A DNA stretch of 64,000 bases from an uncultured bacterium (GCA_963980225.1 CAXBYW010000002.1:103582-167581), one strand, 5' to 3'; numbered from the stretch's first letter, positions 11,499 to 62,531 are shown. Numbers and translations: made by a program. Notes: generated from the sequence alone by a model not told the origin.

Positions 11499-11500
11499 AG

Positions 11501-13187: not shown

Positions 13188-13438
13188 AATGTTTTTTTTG
13201 TGATTGTTAATGTTTTGTTAACTAGTTGTCTGATGGTGTCTGTTGGTTGAGCACCTTTTTTAATCCAAGCTTCATAAAGAGGCTTGTCCAGAGTAATTTC
13301 GTTTTTAGGGTCTCTAGGGTTGTAATGGCCTAGTAGATCTATGTACCTACCAGTTAGCTTGGATCTGTCTCTTGCCACCACAATTCTAAATAATCTTTGG
13401 TTTCTTTTACCGGTTGGTTGTAGCTTAATTTTTAGCAT
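13184..13438 (-). CDS. rpsP: 30S ribosomal protein S16
   Basis: MLKIKLQPTGKRNQRLFRIVVARDRSK. Confidence 0.9.
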   Translation of the reverse strand: MLKIKLQPTGKRNQRLFRIVVARDRSKLTGRYIDLLGHYNPRDPKNEITLDKPLYEAWIKKGAQPTDTIRQLVNKTLTITKKTL

Positions 13439-13446
13439 GATGGTGA

Positions 13447-14504: not shown

Positions 14505-14508
14505 TGTT

Positions 14509-14652
14509 TTAGCAGTGTTCGCAAGTAAAATGCGATCTTTTTAGTTTCTTGCATTTAGGACAAGAGATAAGTTTTGGTTTTTTTAGAACTATTTGGCTAC
14601 GTCTTTTACCTTGACGAGCGGTAGAGTGTTTTCTTTTTGGTGTTGCTGCCAT
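14509..14652 (-). CDS. rpmF: 50S ribosomal protein L32 (not in ORF track, <60 aa)
   Basis: hand translation MAATPKRKHSTARQGKRRSQIVLKKPKLISCPKCKKLKDSHFTCEHC, zinc-ribbon tetracysteine. Confidence 0.8.
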   Translation of the reverse strand: MAATPKRKHSTARQGKRRSQIVLKKPKLISCPKCKKLKRSHFTCEHC

Positions 14653-14665
14653 GGGTGATATTTTA

Positions 14666-46499: not shown

Positions 46500-47795
46500 A
46501 TGAAGTTAGATATAAATAAACAGTTTGAAGATGTTTTGGAGGTTTTAGAAAGTACTAACCATCATGTGTTCTTAACGGGTAAAGCAGGAACGGGCAAGTC
46601 TACTCTGCTAGATTTGTTTCGTGAGAAAACCGCTAAGCAAATAGCGGTAGTTGCTCCGACAGGGGTGGCGGCGGTGAATGTAAAGGGTGAGACGATTCAT
46701 TCTTTTTTTGGTTTTAGACCGGGCACCACCTTGGTACAAGCCAAAAGACTGGCTGGTAGGACCAAAAACAAGAAGCTGTATAACTCGCTTGAGACACTGG
46801 TGATTGACGAGATCTCTATGGTCAGGGCAGATCTTTTGGACATGATAAATGTGTTTTTGCAGGCGGTGCGGGGAGATAATAGTGTGTTTGGTGGAGTACA
46901 GGTGGTGATGGTGGGAGACATGCACCAGTTGCCCCCGGTGGTTACTAGAGAGGATGCAGAGAGTTTGGACATGATGTATGACACACCCTATTTCTTCTCG
47001 TCTGAAGCAGTATCTCAGATCGGTCAGGATTTTTTCCAGCCTCTGAAATTTATGGAATTGGAGAAGATTTATAGACAGGAAGATGAGAAGTTTATCTCTC
47101 TTTTAAATGATGTTCGAGAAAACAATATAGATGAAAAAAAACTGTCTAGCTTGCAAGTCTTGGAGGATGGTTGGGAACACATAAAAGACCATGTAATCTT
47201 AACGGCGGTTAACTATGTAGCTGACAAGATTAACCAACAAAGACTAGCTCAGATAAAAAGTGAACCAAAAACATACATGGCCAGTTTATCTGGTGAGTTT
47301 GATGGTAAGAGACTGCCAACCGATGAAAAACTAATTTTAAAGGAAGGTGCGAGAATTATGATGCTTAATAATGATGACCAAGGTCGATGGATAAACGGGA
47401 CCATGGGAACAGTGAGTAAACTGAAACGGTCTGCAGTAGATGTAGATCTTGATGATGGAGAGACTTATGAAGTTACTCCTTTTACTTGGAGCATGTATAA
47501 GTCGGTTTATGATGAGAAGAAGGGGGTGATAAGAAAGGAAGAGAAAGGATCTTTAACTCAGCTACCGATTAGACTGGCTTGGGCAATTACGGTACATAAA
47601 AGCCAGGGTAAGACTTTTGACAAAGTAATTATTGATCTAAGTCGGGGAATGTTTGCTCACGGCCAGGCCTATGTGGCTTTGTCACGATGCACGACCCTAT
47701 CTGGAGTGAAACTTACTCAGCCAATGGAGAAAAGACATGTGATTATGGATGATAGAGTAGTAAAGTTTGTGGAGAGGATAAGAAAAGAGAAATAG
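46500..47795 (+). CDS. Pif1/RecD-family 5'-3' DNA helicase
   Basis: LTGKAGTGKSTLL Walker A, VIDEISMV Walker B, C-terminal SH3/2B region, 431 aa. Confidence 0.7.
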   Translation: MKLDINKQFEDVLEVLESTNHHVFLTGKAGTGKSTLLDLFREKTAKQIAVVAPTGVAAVNVKGETIHSFFGFRPGTTLVQAKRLAGRTKNKKLYNSLETLVIDEISMVRADLLDMINVFLQAVRGDNSVFGGVQVVMVGDMHQLPPVVTREDAESLDMMYDTPYFFSSEAVSQIGQDFFQPLKFMELEKIYRQEDEKFISLLNDVRENNIDEKKLSSLQVLEDGWEHIKDHVILTAVNYVADKINQQRLAQIKSEPKTYMASLSGEFDGKRLPTDEKLILKEGARIMMLNNDDQGRWINGTMGTVSKLKRSAVDVDLDDGETYEVTPFTWSMYKSVYDEKKGVIRKEEKGSLTQLPIRLAWAITVHKSQGKTFDKVIIDLSRGMFAHGQAYVALSRCTTLSGVKLTQPMEKRHVIMDDRVVKFVERIRKEK

Positions 47796-47813
47796 GATAA
47801 AATATAGGCATAA

Positions 47814-47887
47814 GCGGGTGTCGTATACCGGTATTACCTCAGCTTTCCAAGCTGATGAAGGGGGTTCGACTCCCCCCACCCGCTCCA
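47814..47887 (+). tRNA. tRNA-Gly (TCC), unusual D-arm
   Basis: acceptor gcgggtg/cacccgc, anticodon loop ttTCCaa, T-arm ggggttcgactcccc, CCA. Confidence 0.7.
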
Positions 47888-48545
47888 TATCGGACTGCAT
47901 TTCCAAAAGTGCTCTTTTAGTCCGATCTGTGGGCATATTTTTCGGTTCGAGCCGTTGTTTTTTCTCATTCATACTTTTTTCAATCTTCTTGAGATAGATG
48001 AACGCGTTTTTCGCGTCGATTCGGACAATTCTGTCTTTTAAGATAAGGTTCGAGCCAAGAATGCGTAACACCATACGTTTAGCTTCTGTATCCTCTTTAT
48101 GAAATATTTTTGTTACGTTTGAAGCAAAGGCTAAGATCTCTTCCATTGTTTTTGCCCACCCTCCTAGATTATCGGAAGCAATCTGGTTTTTTGTCTGATG
48201 TTCTTCTCGAAGAAGCCGCTCCTTCTCTTTTTGGTAGTCTTCTTCCGTAACTAAATTTTCAATTTTCATTCCGTATAATTGTTTTTTTTCAACAAGAATG
48301 GCATCTAAGCGTTTCGTAAGCTTTGCTTTCTGGTTCCTCTCAAATTCAAATTCACGCGCATTTCTGCGTTTAAGATTTTTCCTGACCCACTGAATAAAAG
48401 AAGGTTTAATTTCTAGGCTATTAATGAAGACATCTACTTGTTTCTTTAATTCAATAGCATTGAGATATTGTTGACCACAAGGTCCCTTTTTTTTGACACA
48501 GCGAGCCCTACAAAAGATGATTTTAGAAGAATTAGACCTAGATCA
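47888..48545 (-). pseudogene. 3' remnant of a large serine recombinase gene (zinc-ribbon/coiled-coil C-terminal region only) abutting tRNA-Gly
   Basis: in-frame hand translation CGQQYLNAIELKKQVDVFINSLEIKPSFIQWVRKNL...MVLRILGSNLILKDRIVRIDAKNAFIYLKKI parallels the C-terminal halves of both intact recombinases in this window; no catalytic domain and no upstream start; ORF tail is antisense of the tRNA. Confidence 0.6.
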
Positions 48546-48833
48546 ATACGTGGACATTCTTATTGGCCCCGAAATAAAGCAAAACAAAGAAGAAACCCAG
48601 GAAACGCCACCAAATGAGGAGCCGGTAGCCCCTGTAGTGCCTTCTAACGACGCTTTGCCACCTCAACCAGTGAATGCATCACCAGTAGCAAATAAGAACA
48701 AAATTCGAGAGCTAATCGGGAAAATTCCAGGTTTGGGGAAAATGCTCAATGCCTGACTTTATTGTTTGATTTATTCTTTCAAGCAAATATAATGAAGTCA
48801 TGAAAGTAGGAAATGTAAGATTTCTGGTATAGC

Positions 48834-50417
48834 ATGGATAAAATAACTCTCTCCCTACAGACAATCTCCTTACTTATCAATTCAGGAGAGTCAAAAAAAG
48901 CTCTTGAGAGATTGGCTGAATTCGAAAGGGAAAACTCTGACGACAAAAGGCTGATATTTTATAAGCCTGGTTTTTTAGTTGATATAGGGAATGATCTCAG
49001 GGACGTAAAAATCATTAGTGAAGGGATTGATATTGGTGAGCTAACGCTAACAAAAACAAAGAATAACAAGACACAGGCTTATCTCCACTACTGTTTGGCA
49101 AATGGGTACACATGTATGTATCAGCTTACGGAAAGAATGGGTGGTGCTGTAGACAGGACTATACCTCAAAGTGAGAATCTCCTCAAAGCAAAACAGCACC
49201 TATTTCAAGCTAGAGATATTAAAATTGATGACCCAAACCTAGAAGTACAATTGTTTGTTAACTTGGGTAACTGCTTAGATACATTCGGCAGAGGCATTGA
49301 AGCAATTAGTGTTTACGATAAAGCATTGCGAATAAATAAAAGCTTTTCCATGGCTATTGCCAATAAAGCCAAGGCTCTGAGAGCATTTGCAGAAATTTCC
49401 GATAAATACAGAGCATCAATATATGTTGAAGCATATCAAGATATAAAATCGGTTATTGATAAACCAGATCTTGTTGCAGTTGGTGGTTTAGGAGCGAAGC
49501 AGGATTTTGAGCGTGAACTTTCTTACATAGAATCCCGTTTCCAAGACAAAACGCTTCTACAGAAAAAGCTTAAACATCCCCCGTACAAAACCGCAAACCT
49601 CTCTGATTTTGAAAAGTTCTATTTAAAATTTTGCAATAAAGAGAAATTGTTCTTAAACTTCCACCTCCATCAGGATCATTGTGAGGCAGCAATCGAGGAT
49701 CCAGTATTTATCAGACTAATAACTAAAGTCGATGATAATGATACTTTTTACAATCTAGCCAAGCACCTCAATCAAATTAAAGAAGACTATGCCGTCGCCA
49801 GGTTGAATCTGGTCCAATCCCAATACAAGCAGAAAGCCTTCAATAACATTAGCAAGAGAACCAGTTATGTATATGCTTTGGACTACTCCCAATTTAATCT
49901 CTATGTTGGTTTATTGAAGTCAGCGTTTAGAGACGCATTCAACATATTAGATAAAATCGCCATATTTATTAATGACTACTATAAACTTGGATTCAATGAA
50001 AATGATATATATTTCGATTCATTAAGGCGAACCGGAGGAACAGCTTCAATCTGGGAAGATAAAGGAGTTATTAGAAAAGAAATTCTCAACTCAGAAAACC
50101 TAAGCCTATATGCCCTTTATGACATTTATCGTGATTTTAAGCAAAATCGATACAGAAGAATTCAGGATATTAGGAATGCTCTTACACACAGGAGGTTAAT
50201 CGTTTTTGACTCGCTAATTACGAGTGTTGCCGATAAAACCGATAAACACAACATTGACTCTGATACTATTCTTCAAGAAACAGTGGATCTGATGCGCTTA
50301 ACCAAGGCAGCAATCATTTACCTGATTAACTTTGTGAACTCTGAGGAAGAAAAGAAGCACAAGAACAGTGATAAACCAATCCTGAATATGTATGCCGATA
50401 CCTCACAGTTCTTGTAA
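48834..50417 (+). CDS. HEPN-domain protein (Abi-like candidate RNase effector)
   Basis: C-terminal R-x4-H motif in DIRNALTHRRL; helical N-terminal region; 527 aa. Confidence 0.5.
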   Translation: MDKITLSLQTISLLINSGESKKALERLAEFERENSDDKRLIFYKPGFLVDIGNDLRDVKIISEGIDIGELTLTKTKNNKTQAYLHYCLANGYTCMYQLTERMGGAVDRTIPQSENLLKAKQHLFQARDIKIDDPNLEVQLFVNLGNCLDTFGRGIEAISVYDKALRINKSFSMAIANKAKALRAFAEISDKYRASIYVEAYQDIKSVIDKPDLVAVGGLGAKQDFERELSYIESRFQDKTLLQKKLKHPPYKTANLSDFEKFYLKFCNKEKLFLNFHLHQDHCEAAIEDPVFIRLITKVDDNDTFYNLAKHLNQIKEDYAVARLNLVQSQYKQKAFNNISKRTSYVYALDYSQFNLYVGLLKSAFRDAFNILDKIAIFINDYYKLGFNENDIYFDSLRRTGGTASIWEDKGVIRKEILNSENLSLYALYDIYRDFKQNRYRRIQDIRNALTHRRLIVFDSLITSVADKTDKHNIDSDTILQETVDLMRLTKAAIIYLINFVNSEEEKKHKNSDKPILNMYADTSQFL

Positions 50418-50455
50418 GACTTTTTCACAGAATTTTTGTATAATTTAGATAACCT

Positions 50456-52549
50456 ATGGAACCAAAGGCCGATCATATGGAGAGAGAAACACCAACAACC
50501 CTACATGCATTGCGTAAAGATAATCAAACTGAAATTCTCGGTCATTTTTCTCCTGACCAACAACAAGATATCCGCCATAGACAACAAATCCTCTCTTCAC
50601 TTGCCTACTTTATCGGTAAAGATTTTCAGATACCTGTTGAATTGAATCAACCCGGTGCAGGCTGGCATTGGGATTTTGGTCAAAACAAAATTCGCATTGA
50701 CCCAAAAGACTTACTGGAGAAAGAAATGGACTATCTCCGCTTTGTTATTTCCCACGAAGGCGGTCATAGGCGAGTTTCTCGAACTGAAGATATTCCCACA
50801 GAAACATGGCGACAACCAGGATTCTCTTTCATGATGAATGCAATTGAGGATCCTAGAACTAATAACTTTGTGGCGGAAGCCTACCCTCGCTTCCGTGATC
50901 AAATGGATATTGCTTACCAAGAAGACTTGGATTTTGAAGATAAAGCTAAAGACAAAGCTCATGAACAGCTAGGCTATACTCCCAGATTTATGCAGGCCGG
51001 GTTTGAATATATTCGCCAGTGGTACGGAGAAACCCAAGGCGAAGAACTAGGTACTTTGAAAGAAGATCTTCCCGAAGAAGTAAGAATCGTGGTTGATCAA
51101 ACTTTAGAAAGTGCTAGAGACTCTTGGTTACGTTATCCCTCAAAACGGGAAGCTGATGAGAGCGAGGAGTTAATCAGAAGATATGCCAACGTCAGCTATG
51201 AAATAAACCGTGACGAAGTCTGGCCGGAATTTCAGAAACTGGTTGAGCAGGATATGCAGGATCAAGAAATGCAAGAGTTTATGAAAGATATGCAGGGTGA
51301 TGGCGATGGTGAAGGACAGCAGGGACTTCCTCAGGAACTTACCGATTCGCTTACGGAAGAAGAACAAAGAGAACTGGAGGAGGCCATAGAGAACGCTCAG
51401 CAGGGAAACCAAGCAGGTCAGGAAGGCGATGGTCAACCAAGAGCTATAGACCTCGATTCTCTTTCCGAAGGGCTGAAACAAAAAATCAAGGACTATATTG
51501 ACTCCTTACCTGAAGATGTCAAACGGGAGCTGGTAGAAAAAGCACAACAGGCTCTACAGGACTTTGAGCGAGAGATAAATGAAGAATTTGAAGGAAAATT
51601 GTCCGATAGCCCTGAGAAGCAAACCCAGCGAGGTGAGATGGAAGGAAAAAAAAGCAAAACCCAACCTGAATCTGGAGATGAAACTCAAGGAGAACAACAA
51701 CCCGAACAGACAGCAGACCAAAAAAGATTTAAAGATCTTATTGAAAAAACTTTGCTTGGTGACGAAAATATTTACGAAGAATACCGACGTGATGTCCTTC
51801 CTCAGATAGACGCTCTTGAAGCTGACTTACGAGAAATATTTGTAGCCAGACGAGCACAAAAATGGCAGACTGGTTATAAGTCAGGAAAGCGCATTGACAT
51901 TAAAAGAAGAATGCAAGAAAAAGCTTTGGGTATCTCTGCTGTAGAAAGTCGAGCTTGGCAAAAACGAGAAATACCCCAGGAGAAAGATTATGCAATCGGT
52001 CTTTTGGTTGATTTGTCAGGCTCTATGAGGGGTTCAAAAATACGAGAAACATTTAAAGCAACCATTGTATTGGCCGAAGTACTCAACAGGCTCTCAATAA
52101 ATACTGAAATTTTAGGTTTTAACGACAGGTTATATGAATATCAGCCATTTGGGTACGATATGGGTCGGGAGGTACGAGAACATATGGGTGGAATGTTACA
52201 AGAAGTAGACACAGAAGCTGCTTCTTATAACGATGATGGCTGGGCAGTTCAACAAGCCTCGAAAAGGCTTGCGCGCCAAAAAGCAGCTGAAAAATTCCTG
52301 TTTGTCCTTTCTGACGGCTTACCTGAAGAATCAAGAGCGCACTCCGGTTCTCAATATGAACTTGGCAAAATGGTTAGTCAAATAATGGAAGAGACTGATC
52401 AAAAACTAATAGGGCTAGGAATTGGTCCTGGGACAGATCACGTTGAACGCTATTATCCTAACAGCGTAGCAAACATTGGAGTGCGTGAAATGTCAGAAAA
52501 ATTAGCTGACATTATCAGGGAAGTAATCGCCAATTATGACACTTTCTAG
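50456..52549 (+). CDS. HExxH metallopeptidase-like N-terminal domain plus C-terminal von Willebrand A domain
   Basis: VISHEGGHRRV (HExxH); acidic Q/E-rich linker; MIDAS DLSGSMRG; 697 aa. Confidence 0.7.
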   Translation: MEPKADHMERETPTTLHALRKDNQTEILGHFSPDQQQDIRHRQQILSSLAYFIGKDFQIPVELNQPGAGWHWDFGQNKIRIDPKDLLEKEMDYLRFVISHEGGHRRVSRTEDIPTETWRQPGFSFMMNAIEDPRTNNFVAEAYPRFRDQMDIAYQEDLDFEDKAKDKAHEQLGYTPRFMQAGFEYIRQWYGETQGEELGTLKEDLPEEVRIVVDQTLESARDSWLRYPSKREADESEELIRRYANVSYEINRDEVWPEFQKLVEQDMQDQEMQEFMKDMQGDGDGEGQQGLPQELTDSLTEEEQRELEEAIENAQQGNQAGQEGDGQPRAIDLDSLSEGLKQKIKDYIDSLPEDVKRELVEKAQQALQDFEREINEEFEGKLSDSPEKQTQRGEMEGKKSKTQPESGDETQGEQQPEQTADQKRFKDLIEKTLLGDENIYEEYRRDVLPQIDALEADLREIFVARRAQKWQTGYKSGKRIDIKRRMQEKALGISAVESRAWQKREIPQEKDYAIGLLVDLSGSMRGSKIRETFKATIVLAEVLNRLSINTEILGFNDRLYEYQPFGYDMGREVREHMGGMLQEVDTEAASYNDDGWAVQQASKRLARQKAAEKFLFVLSDGLPEESRAHSGSQYELGKMVSQIMEETDQKLIGLGIGPGTDHVERYYPNSVANIGVREMSEKLADIIREVIANYDTF

Positions 52550-52566
52550 TATACTATGCATAACTT

Positions 52567-52977
52567 ATGAAAAATACACTTGATGATTTCTTAAAATACG
52601 TAATTTCTCAAAAAGAAGTCTCTTTAATTCTTGCGAAAGATGATGAGGAACTCAAAAAGCTAACAGAAAAACTAGAAAAAGCTGGTTTTAGACAGGCGGT
52701 CGATACGTCTGATTTGTTTAAACAAATCACTAAAGCTTCGAAAACGTTTGTTGCAGTTAAGGATAGTTTATCCAAAGACCTATACGATTTTGCCGTTCAA
52801 TACCCCACTGGCCAGGTAGAAATCTATGACAAATTCAATTTAAAATCTCAGACAGTAATACCAACCTATAAAGACGTTTCTGTTGTTTACGCATTAACTA
52901 AAGCTACCCTTAAAAAGACTCAAGAATCTGGATTTAGGATCCTTGAGTTAATGGGTATAACTTACCAAAGTAAATAA
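52567..52977 (+). CDS. hypothetical protein between the vWA and AAA+ genes
   Basis: 136-aa ORF. Confidence 0.45.
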   Translation: MKNTLDDFLKYVISQKEVSLILAKDDEELKKLTEKLEKAGFRQAVDTSDLFKQITKASKTFVAVKDSLSKDLYDFAVQYPTGQVEIYDKFNLKSQTVIPTYKDVSVVYALTKATLKKTQESGFRILELMGITYQSK

Positions 52978-52982
52978 AACAT

Positions 52983-54926
52983 ATGCCAGACGAAACCATG
53001 GAAAGACATGAATTCACACCCACACCTGAACATCCTGTTGAGGAAACACAAGACACAATTGCATATTTAGGTGTTCGTTTACCAAAAGCCCAGAATGCTG
53101 AGGGTCATTTTGTTCCTCGCCGGGAACAGTATGCCGATTATATTAACGACAGATTCTCGCTAGGTTTACAAAAAGACATAGCGGTCAGTTTTCTACAAGG
53201 AGATCCTATATTAGTTGAAGGAGGAACCAGTATTGGTAAAACCACTACAGTGAGAAAAATGGCAGCAGATCTTGGTTGGGAAGTCCATTATGCAAACTTG
53301 AATGGCGCTACTGATGTTGAAGACTTAATGGGAAGGTATATTCCCAATCCAGACAAACGAGGTTCTGATGATACTGAGTATGTTTTTGCTGACGGAAAGG
53401 TTACTTCAGGCTTAAGACAGGAAGACGGTAAAGTTAAAGTGATTATTCTGGATGAATTCAACTCAGCCGCTCCAAACATTGTTATCCGCCTTCATGAGGT
53501 TTTAGATGCAATTGACCGCGGTGAATCGGTTGTACTTTCAGAAGACGCTTCAGAATCCATCCCCGTCAGCAAAAAGACAACTAAAGTAGTGGCTCTCATG
53601 AATCCCCCAGGAAAGGGATATTTTGGTCGAGAACCACTTGATCCTGCTCAATTAAGGCGTTGGGTGTATCTTAAAGCTCCTTCAGACCTGCCTGAAGACA
53701 CATTTTCTTATTCAACAGATGCCTTGTTTGCCCTTGCTTCTCAAGATGAAGAAGTTCCTCCTGAAGCATTTTTAGTGTCACAAGACTATGCTCTCCTACC
53801 CGAACAGTTGCAAGAAATCCCAGGAATTGATTCCATCCTTGGAAAATATAAGGAATTTCATAAGGCTGCTAAAGAATTAGTTAAGGGAAGAAGAATAGCT
53901 GCCGATCAACCCCAACCTTTTACTTATGACGACAGAATGGAACCACGAAGGGTTAGAGATTTCATCCTAAGATTTTATAACGGCGATATCAATGAAACAT
54001 TCCAGGGTGCTCTGCGTTATTACTATTCAAACAAACTTGATTCCGATGTTGACAGACAAAAATTAGAAGAACTGATCCGACACGTCGAGTATATGGCGCC
54101 TCAAAATGTTTCCTCAAGGAGAGGTCTTGACCGAACTTCCACAGAGGCTCCAGAAAGACAAAGAGAAACGGTAGAGATATCTCATGAGCAAGACGCTTGG
54201 AGTGATGTGTTGGGTACGAACATAGAAGTTCCACCACTTCCTTCGGAAGTAACCCCAGAGGTACAAAGAAACCTAGAACGCCTTGGTTTTGAACTAAGAT
54301 TTATTCCCAAGCTTGACATCGGAACCTTGGATGAACTCCAGCGAAATGGCCAAGAAGAATTTTTGAACGATATACAACGTCGTTATCCCAATTGGCGAAG
54401 GTATGAAACTCTCTCCGGAGAGGAACGGGAAGATCACAGTGTGGGAAGAAACTTAGAAGAATGGTTTTGGGGATTGGCTAAAGATGGCAGAATGGAGTTT
54501 CCTCAATTGCCTGGTACTTGGGTAGCAGTGGAAACCATGCCTAAACCGTCTTACGGTGATTCCTATGAAAAAACTCTCGCAGGTGAAGCCTTGGGTTTAG
54601 AAGACCGTTTCAATGTTTCTTGGGATGATGCTCATCAAGCAATCGAAACTCATAAACGTGAGCTCTTAGATGACATGGGATTAGCCACTTCTGTGGATGT
54701 GCGGATGTTAGAAGCTGTTGAGTGGAATTTGCTGGCTAATCGTGAAGGCTGGGGTACAACTGACACTTATGAATGGACAAATACTGAAGCACGTGCTGGC
54801 GGCGATCCTCGCCGTGTCGTTGTTGGTGCCTCCGACGATGGTGGGGCCGCTAGCGCCCCTTGGGGTCACCCGACGTTCTCGGGTGGCCGCGTTGGTTTCC
54901 GTGTCGCTGTAGTTCTTGGTACTTGA
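52983..54926 (+). CDS. MoxR-like AAA+ ATPase with C-terminal C-type-lectin/FGE-sulfatase-like domain carrying the DGR variable region
   Basis: Walker A GGTSIGKTT, Walker B VIILDEFN, sensor ALMNPP, DPAQLRRW; C-terminus RRVVVGASDDGG..W.HPT.S...VGFRVAVVL resembles the FGE/CLec terminal motif. Confidence 0.8.
   Translation: MPDETMERHEFTPTPEHPVEETQDTIAYLGVRLPKAQNAEGHFVPRREQYADYINDRFSLGLQKDIAVSFLQGDPILVEGGTSIGKTTTVRKMAADLGWEVHYANLNGATDVEDLMGRYIPNPDKRGSDDTEYVFADGKVTSGLRQEDGKVKVIILDEFNSAAPNIVIRLHEVLDAIDRGESVVLSEDASESIPVSKKTTKVVALMNPPGKGYFGREPLDPAQLRRWVYLKAPSDLPEDTFSYSTDALFALASQDEEVPPEAFLVSQDYALLPEQLQEIPGIDSILGKYKEFHKAAKELVKGRRIAADQPQPFTYDDRMEPRRVRDFILRFYNGDINETFQGALRYYYSNKLDSDVDRQKLEELIRHVEYMAPQNVSSRRGLDRTSTEAPERQRETVEISHEQDAWSDVLGTNIEVPPLPSEVTPEVQRNLERLGFELRFIPKLDIGTLDELQRNGQEEFLNDIQRRYPNWRRYETLSGEEREDHSVGRNLEEWFWGLAKDGRMEFPQLPGTWVAVETMPKPSYGDSYEKTLAGEALGLEDRFNVSWDDAHQAIETHKRELLDDMGLATSVDVRMLEAVEWNLLANREGWGTTDTYEWTNTEARAGGDPRRVVVGASDDGGAASAPWGHPTFSGGRVGFRVAVVLGT
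54791..54918 (+). repeat. DGR variable repeat (VR), last ~42 codons of the AAA+ gene
   Basis: ~125 nt near-identical to 55386-55512; 22 internal mismatches, all at positions that are A in the downstream copy. Confidence 0.85.
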
Positions 54927-54972
54927 TCTCTTGAATTCTTGGTTCTTTTGGTTTCTTGTTACTTGGTCCCTT

Positions 54973-54998
54973 GACCCGCGAAGCGGGTCATTTTTTTT
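54973..54998 (+). terminator. GC-rich hairpin plus T8 just after the VR (terminator; also the usual position of a DGR VR-flanking hairpin)
   Basis: gacccgc gaa gcgggtc then tttttttt. Confidence 0.7.
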
Positions 54999-55385
54999 CA
55001 AAAAAATTTATACCCTATCTTTTGATGTTTATAAATAGCATTTACCCTTGATTTTTACTCCCCACCTTATTTATACTTCAACTTAGATTTTGTTAATGAA
55101 AATACAAGCACGCTTGCATTTCACAAAATTGCTCTTCTTTAGAGCTAGGCCGGAATTCTTGCGGTTACGGCTGCAAGGAGAGTGCTGATAAAGGAGAGAT
55201 AAAACTACTTGCTTACTTTTGAAGATCTCAGGGAAGCCTGAGTCAATTAAAATACAGGAGAGAGTTTTTAAGAAATTAAAAACAATCTTGGGTAGTATCG
55301 AAAGAGTGAAAAGAACATTAAGAATCCAGTGGTAATAATGAGTCAGAGTTATTCTCTAACTCAGGAAAGAAAGTAGGCAACGCGA

Positions 55386-55512
55386 AACGTGATGACGGCG
55401 ATCCTAACCGTGTCATTGTTGGTAACTCCGACAATGGTGGAGCCGCTAACGCCAATTGGAATCACCCGACGAACTCGAATGACAACGTTGGTTTCCGTGT
55501 CGCTGTAGTCTT
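55386..55512 (+). repeat. DGR template repeat (TR)
   Basis: Asn-codon (AAC/AAT)-rich copy of the VR; adenines correspond to all variable VR positions. Confidence 0.85.
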
Positions 55513-55555
55513 ATCTCAGAACGCTCAAAAAAATCTGCCCAGAGAGTCAGGTAAC

Positions 55556-55942
55556 TCAAGAACGATAGGTAGATGCTTTAATCCAGCCACCAAGCATCTT
55601 GCCTATCTCTTGAAGTTGAGACTCAAGAAGGAGGTATTTCTTGTTATCAAGAATCTTTAAATCTTTACAACACCTTATGAGAACTTTTAATACATCAAGC
55701 TTTATGCTCGCCCCTTGTAAAGTGGGAACTTTTTCTGATTTTGATAATTGGCTGGCAGTAATAATATCTTCAATCAATCCCAAAATACCATTTTCAATTT
55801 TTTGTCCAATGGTATATCGATCTTTTTTAGGAAAATGAGATACAAGTTGATAGAAAAACTTATAAAGCTCGTATGTTTTCTGAAAGATCGGAATGTCTAA
55901 ATTAAGCCTGCCTGATTCAAAATCAGTATGAGAATTTGCCAT
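55556..55942 (-). CDS. avd: four-helix-bundle protein (23S rRNA IVS protein family), Avd-like DGR accessory candidate
   Basis: 128 aa, FQKTYELYKFFYQLVSHFPKKDRYTIGQKI typical of this family; sits between TR and RT. Confidence 0.65.
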   Translation of the reverse strand: MANSHTDFESGRLNLDIPIFQKTYELYKFFYQLVSHFPKKDRYTIGQKIENGILGLIEDIITASQLSKSEKVPTLQGASIKLDVLKVLIRCCKDLKILDNKKYLLLESQLQEIGKMLGGWIKASTYRS

Positions 55943-56506
55943 AATAATTATAATGAAATTATAACACTTGAAAATCTATTTCTGGCATGGGAAGGGTTTG
56001 CTAAAGGCAAGAGATCGAAAGCTGATGTAATAAATTTTGAACGAAACTTAGAAGATAATATTTTCAGCCTACACAAAGAGCTTAAGGATAAAGTATATCA
56101 ACACGGAAACTATCAGGAGTTTTATGTTCGAGATCCCAAAATACGCCATATCCACAAAGCTTGCGTCAAAGATAGGGTTGTTCATCATTTAACTAGTAAA
56201 ATACTGGAACAGGTTTTTGATCCAACTTTTTATCCCCACTCCTACTCTTGTCGCAAAGGAAAAGGTACACACAAAGCTGTCCAGGCATTTACAAAGATGG
56301 CTCAGGGCGAGCTGGATGAAGCTAATAAAGCCAAGGGGCGTGCGCTTATTGAAACCCAGGAGTATAAGGGTAAATTTAAAAACTGCCAGAAAGACAAGGG
56401 TAAATTTGATCCAACACCACAGATTATTCTCTCTTTGGCTATTCAGTACATTGGAAACATTATTAGAAGAAAAGGAGGTGATCAATATGAACAACATTTA
56501 CCCTGA
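55928..56506 (+). pseudogene. reverse transcriptase, N-terminal fingers/palm region only (domains 1-2); truncated
   Basis: LENLFLAWEGFAKGKRSK..F.....L...L....Y.......YVRDPKIRHIHKACVKDRVVHHL...FDPTFYPHSYSCRKGKGTHKAV matches RT motifs 1-2; no motif 3-7 or YxDD in any downstream frame. Confidence 0.65.
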
Positions 56507-56750
56507 ATGGAAGAAGGTGTTGTGGAGATTCGGCCGCATTTTCCTGTCAGCATTTCTATTTACTGGCTCACTAGTGCTTATCAACACACAGCCAGAAGCA
56601 CTGACTAGCTGGGACAAATTTTTCAATATGCTGGTTTTACCCTTCCTCTTGTCCGGAGGAATAGCAGGTATCAATGCTGTCGGTAAGCTTTTGCGTGACA
56701 CGTTTGGATCGGAAGATAAAAATAGTCTAGTCGATAAATTACCATTCTAA
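56487..56750 (+). CDS. small two-TM membrane protein (holin-like size)
   Basis: strong RBS aaaggagg 8 nt upstream of ATG; MNNIYPEWKKVLWRFGRIFLSAFLFTGSLVL, 87 aa; within the 56217 track ORF. Confidence 0.45.
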   Translation: MNNIYPEWKKVLWRFGRIFLSAFLFTGSLVLINTQPEALTSWDKFFNMLVLPFLLSGGIAGINAVGKLLRDTFGSEDKNSLVDKLPF

Positions 56751-57007
56751 TGCCCATGAAAGATGATGAATCGGTAAACACCATAAAAATGTTTGAACGA
56801 GTAGCCAAACTTGAAGAAAGAGTTGATGGTGGCTTTGGGTTTATTGGCAAGGAACTAAAGGAGATCAAAGAAAACCACCTGCACCAATTACAAGCAGACG
56901 TGAGCGACCTGAAAATAAAAGTAAATACGATTACGGTAAAGGTTGGTGTGGTGGTTGCGGTTGCAACCATATTGATCGACTTAGCTTTTCGCTTTCTGTT
57001 TCGGTGA
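56750..57007 (+). CDS. hypothetical coiled-coil protein with C-terminal TM
   Basis: 85-aa ORF. Confidence 0.35.
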   Translation: MPMKDDESVNTIKMFERVAKLEERVDGGFGFIGKELKEIKENHLHQLQADVSDLKIKVNTITVKVGVVVAVATILIDLAFRFLFR

Positions 57008-57340
57008 AGATGTCTTTTTCTTGGCTTTTTTTTCAGTGATTTTTTTGTTGCCACTGAAAATTAGATTACTAAGGTCTTCAGTGAAGCCTTTAAAGGAATT
57101 TGCATTTAAAACATGGAAGTGACCAGCCTCGGGGCTTCCAGTAAAAATAAGAGTATCTCCAGAACTGATATTATGCGCTTTTCTCAATTTAGCTGGAATT
57201 ACTATCTGTCCTTTGGAACTTACTGGTGCGGTACCGAAAACAGTCATCTTAACTGATTGTTTCTTTTTTTTAGTCTTACTTTTCATATTCTTTTTAAAAC
57301 TATAATTTGAATTGGATCTCTTCGTGTGAGACAAAATCAT
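56981..57340 (-). CDS. AbrB/MazE/SpoVT-family DNA-binding protein with lysine-rich tail (antitoxin-like)
   Basis: GQIVIPAKLRKAHNISSGDTL swapped-hairpin motif; true start probably the internal Met (MTVFG). Confidence 0.5.
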   Translation of the reverse strand: MILSHTKRSNSNYSFKKNMKSKTKKKKQSVKMTVFGTAPVSSKGQIVIPAKLRKAHNISSGDTLIFTGSPEAGHFHVLNANSFKGFTEDLSNLIFSGNKKITEKKAKKKTSSPKQKAKS

Positions 57341-57682: not shown

Positions 57683-58165
57683 ATGTATCAACAAATCTTT
57701 GAACTCCATGCGGATTTACTTAAGGCTTTGTCCCACCCCAAACGACTGGAGGTAGTTAACCTACTTCGAGATAAAGGTTTAAATGTAGGAGAGATGCAGG
57801 AAATGTTAGGGTTACCCCAGGCAAACTTGAGTCAACACTTAATGGTTTTACGTGAAGCAGGAGTGGTAGAGACAGAAAAAAAGGGCAAGGAAGTGTTTTA
57901 TAAACTGACTAGTAAGAATTTTGTTAAGGCCAGTGATTTACTTAGAGAAGTACTGATTAAGATACACAAAGATGATGACTTGGCGGATGAGTTAACTATA
58001 AAAATGAAGGATCTGGTGCCGGTAGTGGCGGATCCGGTTTGCAAGATGCGGGTATCCCCTAAGACGGCGGCCAGAGGATTTAAGTATGAAGGACAGACCT
58101 ACTATTTCTGTGCAAGTGGATGTTTGGAGAGTTTTAAAAAGAAGCCTAAAAAATATATTAATTAA
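57683..58165 (+). CDS. ArsR/SmtB-family metalloregulator fused to C-terminal TRASH/YHS metal-binding domain
   Basis: HTH LKALSHPKRLEVVNLL...NLSQHL; C-terminal DPVCKMRV...YYFCASGC. Confidence 0.75.
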   Translation: MYQQIFELHADLLKALSHPKRLEVVNLLRDKGLNVGEMQEMLGLPQANLSQHLMVLREAGVVETEKKGKEVFYKLTSKNFVKASDLLREVLIKIHKDDDLADELTIKMKDLVPVVADPVCKMRVSPKTAARGFKYEGQTYYFCASGCLESFKKKPKKYIN

Positions 58166-58175
58166 ATAATAAAAA

Positions 58176-58661
58176 ATGGATAAAAAAATAATAGCAGGTA
58201 TCGTGTTTGGAGTTTTGGTCTTGTTGGGAGGAACTGTCTTTTTGGCTACAAAAGTAAGTTCTCCTGCACAAATAGAGATGGTTCAAGGTGCTATGGTGGA
58301 AGTTGGTGAAACCGCATGGGAGTGGGGAGATATAGGAATAAGTGATGGTAAGGTAGAAAAAGAGTTTGAGATAAGGAACACCGGTTCTGAAACATTAAAA
58401 CTTTTTAATGTTGCTACTTCTTGTATGTGTACTACTGCAATGTTTGTAGATGATGAAAGTCGTATTTTTGGAATGCACACCAAGTCTGGCTATGCAAAAG
58501 AAGTCCCGGCAGGAGAAAGTGTTAAGGTCAGAGTGGTTTTTGATCCACTGTTTCATGGCCCAGATGGAGTTGGTCCTATTAGTCGTCAGGTTACCATGAT
58601 GACTAACGATTCTGAAAATAGCCAGTTAAGTTTTATGCTTACCGCTACGGTTAGAAAATAA
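58176..58661 (+). CDS. DUF1573-like membrane-anchored beta-sandwich protein
   Basis: N-terminal TM, CMC motif, 161 aa; copper-cluster context. Confidence 0.5.
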   Translation: MDKKIIAGIVFGVLVLLGGTVFLATKVSSPAQIEMVQGAMVEVGETAWEWGDIGISDGKVEKEFEIRNTGSETLKLFNVATSCMCTTAMFVDDESRIFGMHTKSGYAKEVPAGESVKVRVVFDPLFHGPDGVGPISRQVTMMTNDSENSQLSFMLTATVRK

Positions 58662-58682
58662 TAATTATTAATATATTAAAGA

Positions 58683-59615
58683 ATGAATAAAAAAATAAAG
58701 AAAGTAATGCCAGTATTTATCATATTAATAGCTGTCTTAGGTGTGTCTATTGTCTGGGCAAGTTTGTTTGACGTTAAAATAAAAGCAAGTGACGGCTTAG
58801 TATCTTTGGTAAATCGAATTTACCCTACACCCACTCCCCTACCAGAACCAAGTATAGAAAACTTAGAAGTAGCAGTAGTACCAGAAGAAGGTTATGAAGT
58901 GAAGATCAACTGGGGTGATACGGGTAAGAAGCTGGTGAAGGCTGGTGGGATTGATATGGGTAAATTTGAGAAGAATTACTCGACTCCTAACTACGCGGAA
59001 CTTATGTCTTACTTAACTGAGAGTAAGGATAAGGGAATTAATATAAACAAAGAAAGCTCGTATTTTTGGGTAAACACTCTGTGGGCCCTGGGGTTAACGC
59101 AAAATTCCAAGGTGCTTTCTGAAGGGATTATGGGTACGGAGTATAAAGATAGACTGGCTAATTTTGCTTCTACTGGAGGCTGGACCTTGGGATCTAAGGC
59201 GGCAGTAGACCTTTATAGTTCTAGCAATATTCTTGATTTGGATGAGGCAGAGCAAGAGATGGTGAGTGAGATCACTTCTAATATATATAGACCTTGTTGT
59301 GGTAATCCCACCTCTTTCCCTGACTGTAACCACGGTATGGCTATTTTAGGATTAGTTGAGTTAATGGTAGACCAAGGTTTTAGTGAGGATGAGATTTACA
59401 AAGCCTCGCTGATGTTTAATTCGTACTGGTTCCCCCAGACATATATTGATCTGGCCTATTACTTCCAGACCGAAGAAAATACGTTGTGGGAAGAGTTAGA
59501 TGCTAAAGAGCTCTTGTCAGCTCAGTATAGTTCTGCACCCGGTTATCAGGCAATTAAAGAAAAAATAGGTGATGTTCCGGGAACGGAATCTAGAGGTGGA
59601 AGTTGTGGAGCTTAA
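58683..59615 (+). CDS. membrane-anchored Cys-rich hypothetical protein
   Basis: N-terminal TM, CCGNPTSFPDCNHG, 310 aa. Confidence 0.45.
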   Translation: MNKKIKKVMPVFIILIAVLGVSIVWASLFDVKIKASDGLVSLVNRIYPTPTPLPEPSIENLEVAVVPEEGYEVKINWGDTGKKLVKAGGIDMGKFEKNYSTPNYAELMSYLTESKDKGININKESSYFWVNTLWALGLTQNSKVLSEGIMGTEYKDRLANFASTGGWTLGSKAAVDLYSSSNILDLDEAEQEMVSEITSNIYRPCCGNPTSFPDCNHGMAILGLVELMVDQGFSEDEIYKASLMFNSYWFPQTYIDLAYYFQTEENTLWEELDAKELLSAQYSSAPGYQAIKEKIGDVPGTESRGGSCGA

Positions 59616-59630
59616 AAAATATAAAAAATT

Positions 59631-60344
59631 ATGAAAAACAAAATACTGTTGGTTTTAGGGTTAGTAGGGATACTAGGAGTTTGGTCTTTGAAAAAAACTA
59701 GTAAACTTCAAGACTCGTCTCCTAAGGTTGTTTCTTTGCAGTCACAAGACTTTGATGAATTGGTCGCTAGCAAAGATGTGTTCTTATTGGATGTTCACAC
59801 ACCAGAACAAAAACATATTGCAGGAACCGATGCTTTCATTCCCTATGATGACATAAAGGGAGGGTTGGGGCAGTTACCTGAGGATAAAAGTACCCCGATC
59901 TTGGTTTACTGTAGATCTGGTTCTATGAGCAAAAGCGCAAGTAAGGATTTGGTGGAGTTAGGTTATAGCGAGGTTTATGACTTGGTGGGTGGGATTAATG
60001 CATATAGGGAAACCCATGTTGGAGTAACTTTAATGCCAGAGACAGTTGAATTGGGAGAAGTGATTTACAAAGATGGAGCAAGTACAGAGTTTGTTTTGAC
60101 TAACAATACTCCCAATGAACTAAAAATAGAGAGAGTTACTGGGTCGTGTGCTTGCACCCAGCCAAGTATAGAAAAGGATGTCTTGGCTCCGTATGAGTCT
60201 ACTATCATTAAGGTTAAATTTGAACCTTCTGTTCATAAGGATGACTCGGATATAGGAGACTTAGTAAGACTGGTGTTTGTAGACACAGATAATGAGAATT
60301 TTGAGCACCTGGTAGGTAAGATTACGGCAAAAGTAGTAAAGTAA
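59631..60344 (+). CDS. rhodanese-domain protein with DUF1573-like C-terminal domain
   Basis: active-site loop LVYCRSGSMS, C-terminal CAC motif, N-terminal TM. Confidence 0.65.
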   Translation: MKNKILLVLGLVGILGVWSLKKTSKLQDSSPKVVSLQSQDFDELVASKDVFLLDVHTPEQKHIAGTDAFIPYDDIKGGLGQLPEDKSTPILVYCRSGSMSKSASKDLVELGYSEVYDLVGGINAYRETHVGVTLMPETVELGEVIYKDGASTEFVLTNNTPNELKIERVTGSCACTQPSIEKDVLAPYESTIIKVKFEPSVHKDDSDIGDLVRLVFVDTDNENFEHLVGKITAKVVK

Positions 60345-60350
60345 TATTAG

Positions 60351-62531
60351 ATGATAAAAAAAAGTTTTTCGATTGTTGGAATGCACTGTGCTGGTTGTGC
60401 GTCGACTTTAACTAAAGCTATTGGTAAGGTTAAGGGTGTGAGTGAGGTACAGGTAACCTACGCCACTGATAAGGCTATTATTGCTTATGATGAGAAGAAG
60501 ATAGACTGGGAGGCTTTAAAAAAAGCGGTAGAAAGTGTAGGGAGCTACAAAATTGTTTTGGATGAGGAAAGAAAACATGAAGATCATGGAAACAACAAAA
60601 GACACGATCACGGTCAGATGTTGGCTGAGGACAAGTTCAAGACGTTACGGTATAAGGTGATTGTTTCTTTAGGTATATTCGCTATATTGTTTATTGGTTC
60701 TTTATTGGGTTGGATGTCGATGCAAGTAGCTTTTGTTTTGACAACAATAGTAATGTTTTATTCTGGAAGTGAGTTTTTTGTTAATGCCTGGGCTGGACTT
60801 TTAAATAAATCAGCTAATATGGATACCTTGGTGGCTATGGGGACGGGTTCTGCTTATGTCTACTCTGCCCTATCTGGAGTAATGTACTTTGAGACCGCTG
60901 TGGCGATTGTAGGACTTGTTTTGCTGGGGAGATATCTAGAGGCCAAAGCGAAGCTAAAGGCGGGTCAAGATATAAAAGAACTGCTTAAACTGCAGGCAAA
61001 AGAGGCAGTGTTGCTAGTTAACGGTAAGGAAGTTATGGTGGCGGTAGAAAACTTGAAATTAGGTGATGTTTTAGTGATAAAGCCAGGTAGTAAAGTAGCA
61101 GTAGATGGAGTAGTAATAGAAGGAAGTTCTTACATAGACGAGTCTCTGGTAACGGGAGAGAGTAAGCCAGTCAAAAAGAAAAAAGGAGACAAGCTTATTG
61201 GAGGTACGATTAACTTTAAAGGAAGGTTAATAATGAAGGTAACCCAAGTAGGAGCAGACACGGTCCTATCTAAGATTGCCACCATGGTCCAGGAAGCACA
61301 GAACAGTCAGGCTCCGATTCAGAAGTTGGCGGACAAGGTTTCTTCTATATTTGTACCTGTGGTGATACTCTTGGCGCTTAGCTCTTTTATGGTTTGGTAC
61401 TTTGTTTTGGGAGCTAGTTTTAGTACGGCCTTGACCTTTTTTATTACGGTGTTAATTATTTCTTGTCCATGTGCATTGGGTCTAGCCACTCCTATTGCTA
61501 TTATGGTGGGTACCGGAAGAGGAGCTTCTTTGGGGATCTTGATTAAGACGGCAGAGAAATTGCAGATAGCGGGTAAGGTTGATACTTTGGTGTTTGACAA
61601 GACAGGGACATTGACTAAAGGTAACTTTGTGGTAACTAATGTACTGGGAGTAAGTCCAGACTGGAGCAGAAAGAAATTACTTAAGCTAGCAGCTGGAATA
61701 GAAATAGGATCTGAACATCCGGTAGCAATGGCTATTTTAGAAGAGTCCGGAAAGATGAAGTTAGACAGACTAACGGGCTTTCAGGCCATAGAAGGAATGG
61801 GTGTAGAGGGAAAGTTATCGGACAAGAAAGTGGTGGTAGGAAATAAAAAATTGATGGATAAAAAAAGATACGTAATATCTAAAGACTTACACCTTAAGGG
61901 TGGGAAAATGATGAGTGAAGGAAAGACTGTGGTCTATGTGGGATTTGAAGGAGAAGTGGTTGGGGTGATGGCTTTAGCAGATGAGGCTAAGGAAGAAGCC
62001 CAGAAGACGGTTAAAGACCTGCAAATGAAAGACATTGATGTGTGGATGATGACTGGAGATAATGAAGAAACAGCTAAGGGAGTAGCAAAAAATTTGGGAA
62101 TTAAAAATGTATTGTTTGAGGTTTTACCTAAAGATAAAGTGAGTGAGATAAAGAAACTTCAGGATAAAGGAAAGCTTGTAGCAATGGTGGGAGATGGGGT
62201 GAATGACGCTCCGGCTTTGGCAAAGGCAGATATAGGGATGGCTATGGCAACTGGTACAGAGGTAGCTATGGAGACAGCGGATATATCTTTGGTTAGAGGT
62301 AAAGTAGAGCTAGTGAACCAAGCACTTCTACTGTCTAAGAAGACCATGAGGGTGATTTCCCAGAACTTGTTTTGGGCATTTGGGTACAACGTCCTACTTA
62401 TTCCGGTAGCTGCCGGGCTATTTGCACCTTTAGGAGTTAAGGTCTCCCCTATTTTGGCATCTGGAGCGATGGCGTTTTCTTCATTGTCTGTTGTCTTGAA
62501 TTCCTTGAGATTAAGAAGAATTAAGTTGTAG
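60351..62531 (+). CDS. copA: copper-translocating P1B-type ATPase
   Basis: N-terminal HMA GMHCAGC, CPC, DKTGTLT, GDGVNDAP; 726 aa. Confidence 0.9.
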   Translation: MIKKSFSIVGMHCAGCASTLTKAIGKVKGVSEVQVTYATDKAIIAYDEKKIDWEALKKAVESVGSYKIVLDEERKHEDHGNNKRHDHGQMLAEDKFKTLRYKVIVSLGIFAILFIGSLLGWMSMQVAFVLTTIVMFYSGSEFFVNAWAGLLNKSANMDTLVAMGTGSAYVYSALSGVMYFETAVAIVGLVLLGRYLEAKAKLKAGQDIKELLKLQAKEAVLLVNGKEVMVAVENLKLGDVLVIKPGSKVAVDGVVIEGSSYIDESLVTGESKPVKKKKGDKLIGGTINFKGRLIMKVTQVGADTVLSKIATMVQEAQNSQAPIQKLADKVSSIFVPVVILLALSSFMVWYFVLGASFSTALTFFITVLIISCPCALGLATPIAIMVGTGRGASLGILIKTAEKLQIAGKVDTLVFDKTGTLTKGNFVVTNVLGVSPDWSRKKLLKLAAGIEIGSEHPVAMAILEESGKMKLDRLTGFQAIEGMGVEGKLSDKKVVVGNKKLMDKKRYVISKDLHLKGGKMMSEGKTVVYVGFEGEVVGVMALADEAKEEAQKTVKDLQMKDIDVWMMTGDNEETAKGVAKNLGIKNVLFEVLPKDKVSEIKKLQDKGKLVAMVGDGVNDAPALAKADIGMAMATGTEVAMETADISLVRGKVELVNQALLLSKKTMRVISQNLFWAFGYNVLLIPVAAGLFAPLGVKVSPILASGAMAFSSLSVVLNSLRLRRIKL

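Follow-up and report, generated by a model that had tools for sequence, protein, structure and literature searches.

Do neighbouring genes beside a tRNA gene form one defence system, or are they separate passengers of a mobile element? This question was raised by a 64,000-nucleotide stretch of DNA from an uncultured bacterium (CAXBYW010000002.1:103582-167581), hereafter the window, in which genes for a Pif1/RecD-like helicase, a HEPN-motif protein, a protein with an HExxH peptidase-like head and a vWA tail bearing a metal ion-dependent adhesion site (MIDAS), and a MoxR-like AAA+ ATPase lie close to a tRNA-Gly gene. A preliminary description had taken these four genes as a single defence or conflict module on a decayed island, with a sensor domain diversified by a diversity-generating retroelement (DGR). 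That observation is largely real, and the boundaries that it drew for the system are wrong. In the reading that we favour, to which we give a probability of roughly one half, the region 48.5-56.3 kb is the remnant of an SU10-like phage beside tRNA-Gly in the chromosome of a WWE3 bacterium (Patescibacteria); it carries the HEPN gene and a conflict cassette as separate cargo, and the cassette proteins would work together through an AAA+ ring, a MIDAS domain and a zincin-like domain. The features concerned are given below, L002 being an intact phage locus used for comparison.

46500-47795, plus strand: PIF1/RecD-like SF1B helicase, 431 residues (Pfam PIF1 1.9e-29)
47814-47887, plus strand: tRNA-Gly(tcc), left border of the decayed mobile element (ARAGORN; Rfam tRNA 58 bits)
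48487-48747, plus strand: remnant of an SU10-like portal gene, last 87 codons (tblastn with the L002 portal)
48834-50417, plus strand: TPR + HEPN_LA2681 protein, 527 residues (Pfam 3.2e-32)
50456-52549, plus strand: cassette gene 1, zincin-like + vWA, 697 residues (Pfam CobT_C 3.5e-17)
52567-52977, plus strand: cassette gene 2, 136 residues (placed between the vWA and AAA+ genes in 47/47 evaluable loci)
52983-54926, plus strand: cassette gene 3, AAA_5 ATPase, 647 residues (Pfam AAA_5 2.7e-13)
54791-54913, plus strand: DGR variable region (VR), residues ~603-644 of the AAA+ protein (comparison of VR and template)
54972-54990, plus strand: GC-rich hairpin with 8-bp stem and GAA loop, followed by T8 (terminator scan)
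55387-55509, plus strand: DGR template repeat (TR), rich in AAC codons (comparison of VR and template)
55556-55942, minus strand: Avd accessory protein, 128 residues, intact (NCBIfam DivGenRetAVD 7.5e-29)
55928-56305, plus strand: DGR reverse transcriptase (RT), truncated (tblastn with the L002 RT)

A conserved cassette with its own retroelement

The AAA+ protein has hundreds of close homologues, and one genome per species was scanned for them, which yielded a set of 53 cassette loci. Nearly all of these belong to Patescibacteria of many classes; a metagenome-assembled genome (MAG) of Micrarchaeota is also among them. Upstream of the AAA+ gene stood a vWA gene and then a small gene, in constant order and on the same strand in all 47 loci with enough upstream sequence. 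This linkage bears out the earlier idea of a coupled vWA and AAA+ pair with a DGR-diversified domain. The Pfam assignments agreed with the gene list of the preliminary description, which had overlooked the conserved 136-residue gene at 52567-52977. A DGR RT was present within 10 kb of the cassette in 31 of the 41 evaluable loci. Clustering of 866 neighbouring proteins gave no further recurrent family, and a Pfam census of 122 flanking proteins returned mixed housekeeping genes with a few serine recombinases, integrases and methylases. From this locus comparison, the conserved unit is therefore vWA - small gene - AAA+/VR - TR - Avd (minus strand) - RT (plus strand).

The cassette is about 7.5 kb long and retains 60-70% identity across Candidate Phyla Radiation (CPR) classes and into DPANN MAGs. 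Its three protein genes, TR and avd are intact in the window. The dN/dS values against relatives were no higher than 0.08 for all four protein genes; since synonymous sites are saturated, they show overall purifying selection only and not selection after decay. Neither a transmembrane (TM) segment nor a hydrophobic N-terminus was found in any of four proteins checked, which included the three cassette proteins. A PADLOC-DB 2.0 scan of six proteins gave no system match, in agreement with the earlier statement that the genes match no named family: the HEPN and small proteins had no match, the vWA and AAA+ proteins gave marginal ones (SspF 0.064; mad8 2e-4), and Pif1 alone matched helicase models.

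Some loci depart from the common layout. The small gene and AAA+ gene are tandemly duplicated as a pair behind a single vWA gene in L016 (9570-14709) and L052, while in L034, L046, L047 and L053 a protein whose only domain is of the C-type-lectin (CLec) kind is encoded between the vWA gene and the small gene. Many cassette loci also have an extra CLec-only target of ~330 residues. Contigs binned as DPANN (Micrarchaeota, Anstonellales) carry the cassette as well (L036 and protein P0064), at 63-72% identity to the bacterial copies, which is either a cross-domain transfer or a binning error.

The HExxH head and vWA MIDAS tail reported earlier for the 697-residue protein were both recovered. The protein consists of a zincin-like HExxH...E part (about residues 40-260), an acidic and Gln-rich linker (260-435) and a C-terminal CobT/NorD-type vWA domain with an intact MIDAS. 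The motifs HEGGHRR (100-106), IEDPR (130-134) and the MIDAS sequences DLSGSM and SDG are each at least 90% conserved in 49 homologues. Moreover, HE[GA]xH[RK] followed 25-40 residues on by N-x-[IVA]-E-D was found in 94 of 101 full-length representatives, down to ~28% identity and with constant architecture. By sequence, the vWA domain matched the CobT vWA domain (5.5e-10) and the midasin MIDAS domain (1.4e-3) in the PDB, and Foldseek matched it to the NorD vWA domain (6.7e-5). The linker, ~175 residues long, contains 27% D+E and 15% Q; midasin likewise has an acidic linker ahead of its MIDAS domain.

The 136-residue protein is marked by the motif YDFxxQYPTGQxE. It had no match in Pfam, NCBIfam, PHROG, PADLOC or the PDB, where a profile search gave nothing below E = 0.3. 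The 647-residue protein was confirmed as an AAA+ ATPase, its AAA_5 domain falling in the MoxR/midasin/dynein clade. This domain is followed by a helical middle region and the C-terminal DGR-targeted domain; Walker A, Walker B, the sensor-1 Asn and an RR pair are invariant. Its profile matched midasin AAA modules at 1.7e-29, far better than NorQ or CobS, and the AlphaFold2 (AF2) model, with a mean confidence (pLDDT) of 78.6, matched CbbQ, midasin, dynein, NorQ and RavA. Between the AAA+ and VR domains, within the C-terminal 260 residues, five other cassette AAA+ proteins gave weak matches to Pfam Mg296, a Mycoplasma protein family (best E = 1.4e-4).

The DGR-diversified domain proved to be a genuine VR at the extreme C-terminus of the AAA+ protein, where the model pLDDT is ~90. 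VR and TR are 83% identical over 123 nt, and all 21 mismatches fall at TR adenines, 20 of them at codon positions 1 or 2. The TR translates as KRDDGDPNRVIVGNSDNGGAANANWNHPTNSNDNVGFRVAVVL. The Avd protein scores 100 bits against a DivGenRetAVD cut-off of 80. As for the RT, the open reading frame (ORF) spans 55928-56506 and 192 residues, of which residues 1-126 alone are homologous to the 345-residue L002 RT (83% identity, tblastn), itself a full RVT_1 protein (4.7e-29). The NCBIfam match of the window RT covers positions 24-119 of a 353-position model, and the part of the ORF past residue 126, ending at 56506, is unrelated sequence. A second RT was not found in the 64-kb window.

The 90% cluster of the window AAA+ protein has seven members, which differ by single residues outside the VR only, and the exact protein occurs on 21 contigs. 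In three of the four sister clusters examined, four to nine residue states were seen, almost wholly at residues 605-638, at positions facing TR adenines. With its RT cut short and its VR frozen, the diversifier no longer works in the window lineage. The hairpin with its T8 tract starts 46 nt after the AAA+ stop codon and would serve as a terminator and/or, by analogy, as the target-recognition hairpin of the DGR. The DGR of Bordetella phage has a hairpin downstream of its VR. The DGR layout (55387-56305) is unusual, with TR on the plus, avd on the minus and RT on the plus strand, and with the starts of RT and avd overlapping head-to-head by 15 nt. As avd lies on the minus strand, a TR-RT transcript would thus run antisense through it. 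The same Avd(minus)/RT(plus) arrangement recurs in most cassette loci.

Phage remnant, HEPN gene and chromosomal neighbours

The stretch at 48487-48747 matches residues 547-633 of the 635-residue L002 portal protein at 66% identity (tblastn). The intact L002 protein is recognized by Pfam as SU10_portal (3.6e-10) and also by the PHROG portal / head-tail adaptor families. An intact phage layout was seen in L002, L004 and three IMG/VR viral contigs (L054-L056), and runs portal - 83-residue protein - HEPN - vWA - small gene - AAA+ - TR - Avd - RT - small genes - SU10 major capsid protein (MCP) - tail fibre - amidase. The full structural set (SU10_portal, SU10_MCP, tail fibre and amidase) is kept in L002, L054-L056 and L060. 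The window copy lacks the greater part of the portal, two thirds of its RT and all that followed the RT, capsid genes included. Since the 87-codon portal piece is the only structural gene left, the window copy is a phage remnant and not a prophage. The decayed mobile element next to tRNA-Gly that had been proposed earlier is thereby substantiated.

Comparison of related phages showed how the space behind the portal gene is used. In the sister phage L060 (portal 75% and MCP 87% identical), HEPN is followed directly by the capsid module, and the cassette is missing. The portals of L064 and L065 are 86-98% identical to that of L002, and their HEPN gene is followed by another DGR, whose RT is 32% identical and whose avd has the opposite orientation; for L065 (locus 5895-16495) the target is a 1530-residue FN3/FGE-sulfatase protein. 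Compared with the cassette phage, these two genomes look like cases of DGR module swapping at one phage hot spot. Within the cassette phages, 4.9 kb are inserted between the HEPN and vWA genes in L055, and L009 of the same phage lineage carries the cassette without HEPN. Given the layouts of L055, L009, L060, L064 and L065, the post-portal space is a cargo hot spot at which HEPN and DGR modules are exchanged independently. Hence, the adjacency of HEPN and cassette in the window reflects this hot spot and not a common mechanism.

A more distant phage, L017, also carries the cassette. Close relatives of the cassette were found on 3 of 2.9 million viral contigs in IMG/VR, and the AAA+ protein had no relatives among GenBank phages, barring a weak haloarchaeal virus match. 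Upstream of the portal and on the opposite strand, L002 (2-3241), L064 and L065 have large methyltransferase and SNF2/ResIII helicase genes (PHROG 2713/6380; N6_N4_Mtase, Eco57I), and judging from these matches the phage may possess its own restriction-modification (R-M)-like module beside the HEPN gene. A shared ancestral decayed insertion of the window and L001, which would have dated domestication, was considered and dropped, the CopA/ArsR flanks being just ~34% identical.

The 527-residue protein was assigned to HEPN_LA2681 with 112 bits against a cut-off of 27; its N-terminal TPR matches are weak. The R-x4-H motif claimed for it withstood proper alignment: R447 and H452 (R-N-A-L-T-H) do not vary among 16 homologues, the most distant of which share ~51% identity. 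As this motif is invariant, the protein is probably an active RNase. A TPR N-terminus and a HEPN C-terminus are the standard architecture of the LA2681 family (PMC3710099), and with its conserved Rx4H the window protein is a regular member of the family described by Anantharaman et al. 2013. The window member is a phage cargo gene placed right after the portal, whereas elsewhere in the family the gene is attached to the end of MmeI-like R-M genes or carried on conjugative elements.

The neighbourhood comparison did not support HEPN as a component of the four-gene module. HEPN accompanies the cassette in just 4 of the 53 genome loci and on three viral contigs, in one SU10-like phage lineage. 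Its homologues at 56-71% identity lacked the cassette in all seven cases (L058, L060, L062, L064, L065, L066 and L067). Among these, L058 has the gene on a conjugative element, L062 beside a serine recombinase in an island, and in L066 (4910-9611) and L067 (5222-9590) the HEPN gene starts 29-41 nt ahead of the stop codon of an MmeI-like type IIG R-M gene, an overlap that suggests translational coupling of HEPN_LA2681 with R-M in these non-phage contexts. HEPN is an independent phage cargo gene, separate from the cassette.

The Pif1 gene fared no better as a member. Its identity as a PIF1/RecD-like helicase was right, and its placement on the tRNA-Gly island was not: the gene lies upstream of tRNA-Gly, beyond the tRNA side of the island, and ends 18 nt before it. 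It was linked to the cassette in none of the relatives (0/53 cassette loci), and is an unrelated chromosomal neighbour. The tRNA-Gly gene itself is where it had been reported, and ~950 nt without an intact gene separate it from the HEPN gene. A recombinase remnant had also been reported beside the tRNA; neither Pfam nor phmmer returned a significant match for the frame at 47888-48500 on the minus strand, even when this was extended. This open frame enters the tRNA-Gly gene and contains a Cys-rich stretch, CRARCVKKKGPCG, and then a charged, apparently helical region. To our eye these recall the C-termini of serine recombinases, which is an impression only, and the frame stays unconfirmed; it may represent the end of the integrase assumed earlier. 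No att-like repeat of the tRNA-Gly 3' end occurs elsewhere in the window.

The AAA+ protein of the window is identical to MBT6401285.1 from a candidate division WWE3 bacterium. The remainder of the 64-kb window is ordinary chromosome, with a type IV pilus cluster, RecG, PBP1A, PheT, TypA and nine tRNAs. Around the point at which RT homology stops are two ORFs, both small and with hydrophobic stretches (56217-56750 and 56750-57007; maximum KD19 1.8 and 2.3), and, on the minus strand, a MazE/AbrB-like gene (56981-57340; MazE_antitoxin 8e-8) with no toxin partner visible. A metal-handling cluster at 57683-62531 comprises a gene that joins an ArsR-type helix-turn-helix with a YHS domain, three small genes and one 726-residue gene, which from its translation, read by eye, we take to resemble a copper-type P-type ATPase; a tRNA-Leu follows. 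The type IV pilus genes (1118-12795) are co-oriented and dense, and encode PilB-like and PilT-like ATPases, PilC, an A24 prepilin peptidase, PilM and several small proteins. The GC skew on their coding strand is very high, 0.32-0.36 over 4-12 kb.

Proposed mechanism and rival explanations

According to the favoured reading, an SU10-like phage would have integrated next to tRNA-Gly with two separate pieces of cargo lying between the genes for portal and capsid. One would be the stand-alone TPR-HEPN(LA2681) protein, a predicted abortive-infection or toxin-type RNase. The other would be a self-contained and horizontally mobile cassette of zincin-vWA, 136-residue and AAA+ proteins with TR, Avd and RT. 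Its AAA+ protein would assemble into a ring of MoxR/midasin type, with its DGR-diversified domains exposed in the cytoplasm for ligand binding, and the vWA protein would dock on this ring via its MIDAS domain and acidic linker, in the manner of midasin, CobS-CobT, NorQ-NorD and CbbQ-CbbO. Binding of a foreign or host protein by the variable domain could then lead to ATP-driven remodelling coupled to the HExxH zincin domain, which would cleave the captured protein or a cellular target. The 136-residue protein may be a dedicated partner of the ATPase, as adaptor, inhibitor or MIDAS ligand. A conflict function is favoured over housekeeping because horizontal transfer is frequent, the cassette is carried in a phage hot spot beside HEPN, and recombinases occasionally flank it.

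Several points weigh against this reading. The RT was not nearby in 10 of the 41 evaluable cassette loci, and most cassettes sit amid housekeeping genes of tiny genomes and not in obvious defence islands. The vWA protein is a predicted peptidase on its motifs only: residues 1-260 matched no Pfam family (DUF2201_N, SprT or others) in 30 close and 10 distant homologues, its AF2 model has a pLDDT of 62.9 and is unreliable in the zincin part (<50 around HExxH), and Foldseek with this low-confidence model gave vWA matches only and no solved fold for the N-terminal head. A C-type-lectin fold of the VR domain received no FGE-sulfatase Pfam match in 33 cassette C-termini and no PDB sequence match, and fold searches with the AAA+ protein, in which the VR domain is outweighed, listed AAA+ matches only. 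The mechanism and its links among the three proteins are drawn by analogy, and the same data are compatible with a role of the cassette in phage biology or in the interaction of symbiont and host.

That HEPN, zincin-vWA, MoxR-like AAA+ and Pif1 form one defence system, in which vWA-MoxR would regulate the HEPN RNase effector and the DGR domain would act as sensor, we judge quite improbable. The genes are indeed adjacent and co-oriented, the gap between HEPN and vWA is 38 nt with no terminator-like site in it, HEPN is predicted to be catalytically competent, and HEPN and cassette occur together in eight loci of one phage lineage. Against this, HEPN is missing from 49 of the 53 cassette loci, L009 of that same lineage included; the insertion in L055 parts HEPN from vWA; none of the seven HEPN homologues has vWA and AAA+ neighbours; and Pif1 lies across the tRNA and is linked in no relative. 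Still more weakly placed is the notion of an ordinary CobS/CobT-type chelatase or metallo-cofactor insertion pair with housekeeping function and a DGR nearby by chance, which we find scarcely credible. It takes its cue from the source annotation 'cobalamin biosynthesis protein CobT' and from weak NCBIfam matches, yet these reach 22 bits against an equivalog cut-off of 558 for CobS and 21 against 759 for CobT. Neither the window nor any of the 53 loci has a CobN-like gene, the VR is inside the AAA+ gene itself, the AAA+ domain is nearer to midasin than to CobS, and the zincin head is unmatched by CobT models, with Pfam and NCBIfam covering the vWA domain only.

The two other explanations concern whom the cassette serves. 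It might serve the mobile element or phage, by disabling variable host proteins such as defence factors or by superinfection exclusion, which we regard as unlikely and nonetheless worth weighing. Its position inside SU10-like genomes, between portal and capsid genes in a hot spot where DGR cargo is swapped, speaks for this, as do the copy in the more distant L017, the CobS/CobT-like AAA_5+vWA pairs that are common phage genes (PHROG matches), and recombinases near several chromosomal copies. The scarcity of close relatives on IMG/VR contigs and their absence from GenBank phages point the other way; housekeeping genes flank most loci, and the window cassette has survived the loss of its phage. 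Alternatively, the variable protein could be extracytoplasmic and mediate attachment or recognition between episymbiont and host, with AAA+/vWA as export or assembly chaperone. DGR targets are generally binding proteins and CPR episymbionts must adjust to their hosts (10.1101/2020.04.01.020958), the window also contains a type IV pilus cluster, though unlinked, and many loci encode the second CLec-only target. This explanation appears decidedly doubtful in view of the three cassette proteins, which lack a signal peptide and TM segments, of CPR targets, which according to Roux et al. lack TM domains, and of MoxR/midasin-type AAA+ proteins, which are cytoplasmic remodelling machines.

Relation to known systems and meaning

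An AAA ATPase fused to a C-type-lectin variable domain is the commonest architecture of DGR targets in CPR, as summarized in PMC10907252 citing Paul et al. 2017. The window protein shares with these AAA-CLec targets, as that summary describes them, the organisms, a C-terminal VR on an ATPase, a CPR-type DGR and the absence of TM or secretion signals, and thus it almost certainly belongs to the same group. The summaries given there (PMC10907252) mention the AAA-CLec fusion only.

DGR-diversified FGS/CLec domains also occur in vWA-MoxR conflict systems (PMC7159879), and the DGR-linked ones have been proposed as sensors of invaders (PMC7159879, PMC10907252). With the ternary systems of Kaur et al. 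2020 (VMAP, iSTAND, FtsH and beta-propeller types; PMC7159879) and their DGR-linked forms in multicellular bacteria (Dore et al. 2024, PMC10907252), the cassette has in common an AAA+ protein of the MoxR clade combined with a vWA protein and one further protein, a DGR-diversified proposed sensor, a cytoplasmic location and frequent peptidase domains. The differences are considerable. The variable domain is on the ATPase in the cassette and on the vWA protein in those systems, where the effector or FGS domain is C-terminal on vWA, whereas the cassette vWA domain is itself C-terminal and the zincin part N-terminal. The third component is the 136-residue protein instead of VMAP, iSTAND, an FtsH pair or a beta-propeller, none of which was present in the flanks of the 53 loci. 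Kaur et al. trace the ternary systems to CoxD-CoxE, whereas the cassette pair is nearest to midasin, CobST and NorQD. The DGR-linked systems reside in multicellular bacteria and the cassette in unicellular ultra-small bacteria and their phages, and the CPR RT clade is distant from the RT clade of those systems (PMC10907252). The cassette is a variation on the known DGR-linked vWA-MoxR theme, without the defining features of VMAP or iSTAND.

NorQ-NorD, CbbQ-CbbO and CobS-CobT provide the best structural matches of both cassette domains (NorQ, NorD VWA, CbbQ, CobT VWA). In these pairs the client is gripped by a vWA/MIDAS adaptor acting together with an AAA+ ring; unlike the cassette, they have fixed enzyme clients (NOR, Rubisco, CobN) and no hypervariable domain, zincin head or DGR. 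The eukaryotic midasin (Rea1/Mdn1), which works on pre-60S ribosomes, is a single giant polypeptide comprising six AAA modules, whereas in the cassette the ATPase and the MIDAS protein are separate, and the zincin and DGR-variable domains are extra. The DGR of Bordetella phage BPP-1 (Mtd) likewise has an adenine-specific TR/VR pair, Avd, RT and a hairpin past the VR, and is phage-borne. It targets a tail fibre, whereas the cassette DGR targets a cytoplasmic ATPase, has avd on the opposite strand head-to-head with RT and, in the window, a truncated RT.

CPR bacteria and DPANN archaea are exceptionally rich in DGRs, whose commonest target there is an AAA ATPase bearing a variable domain, and large surveys explicitly left unanswered why membrane or secretion signals are missing from these targets. 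The present comparison shows that the DGR-targeted ATPase is never alone, being always accompanied by a zincin-vWA protein and a small protein, that the AAA+/vWA pair is of the midasin/CobST/NorQD mechanical type, and that the block moves as a unit, phages included, and can outlast its own RT. For annotation, the labels 'CobT' and 'MoxR' are misleading, and the adjacent HEPN gene should not be scored with the system. A trio of 'hypothetical/CobT/MoxR' genes is thus turned into a testable hypothesis of ring, MIDAS adaptor, protease and programmable specificity. In its furthest form, which we put forward tentatively and consider unlikely, the cassette would be a device for programmable protein targeting that moves among Patescibacteria, DPANN archaea and phages: the DGR would rewrite a recognition domain on an AAA+ ring of midasin/MoxR type, and ring and MIDAS partner would pull out practically any protein so selected and pass it to a built-in metalloprotease. 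If true, this would be a prokaryotic form of adaptive targeted proteolysis, and would account for the cytoplasmic nature of the DGR target most often met in these ultra-small organisms.

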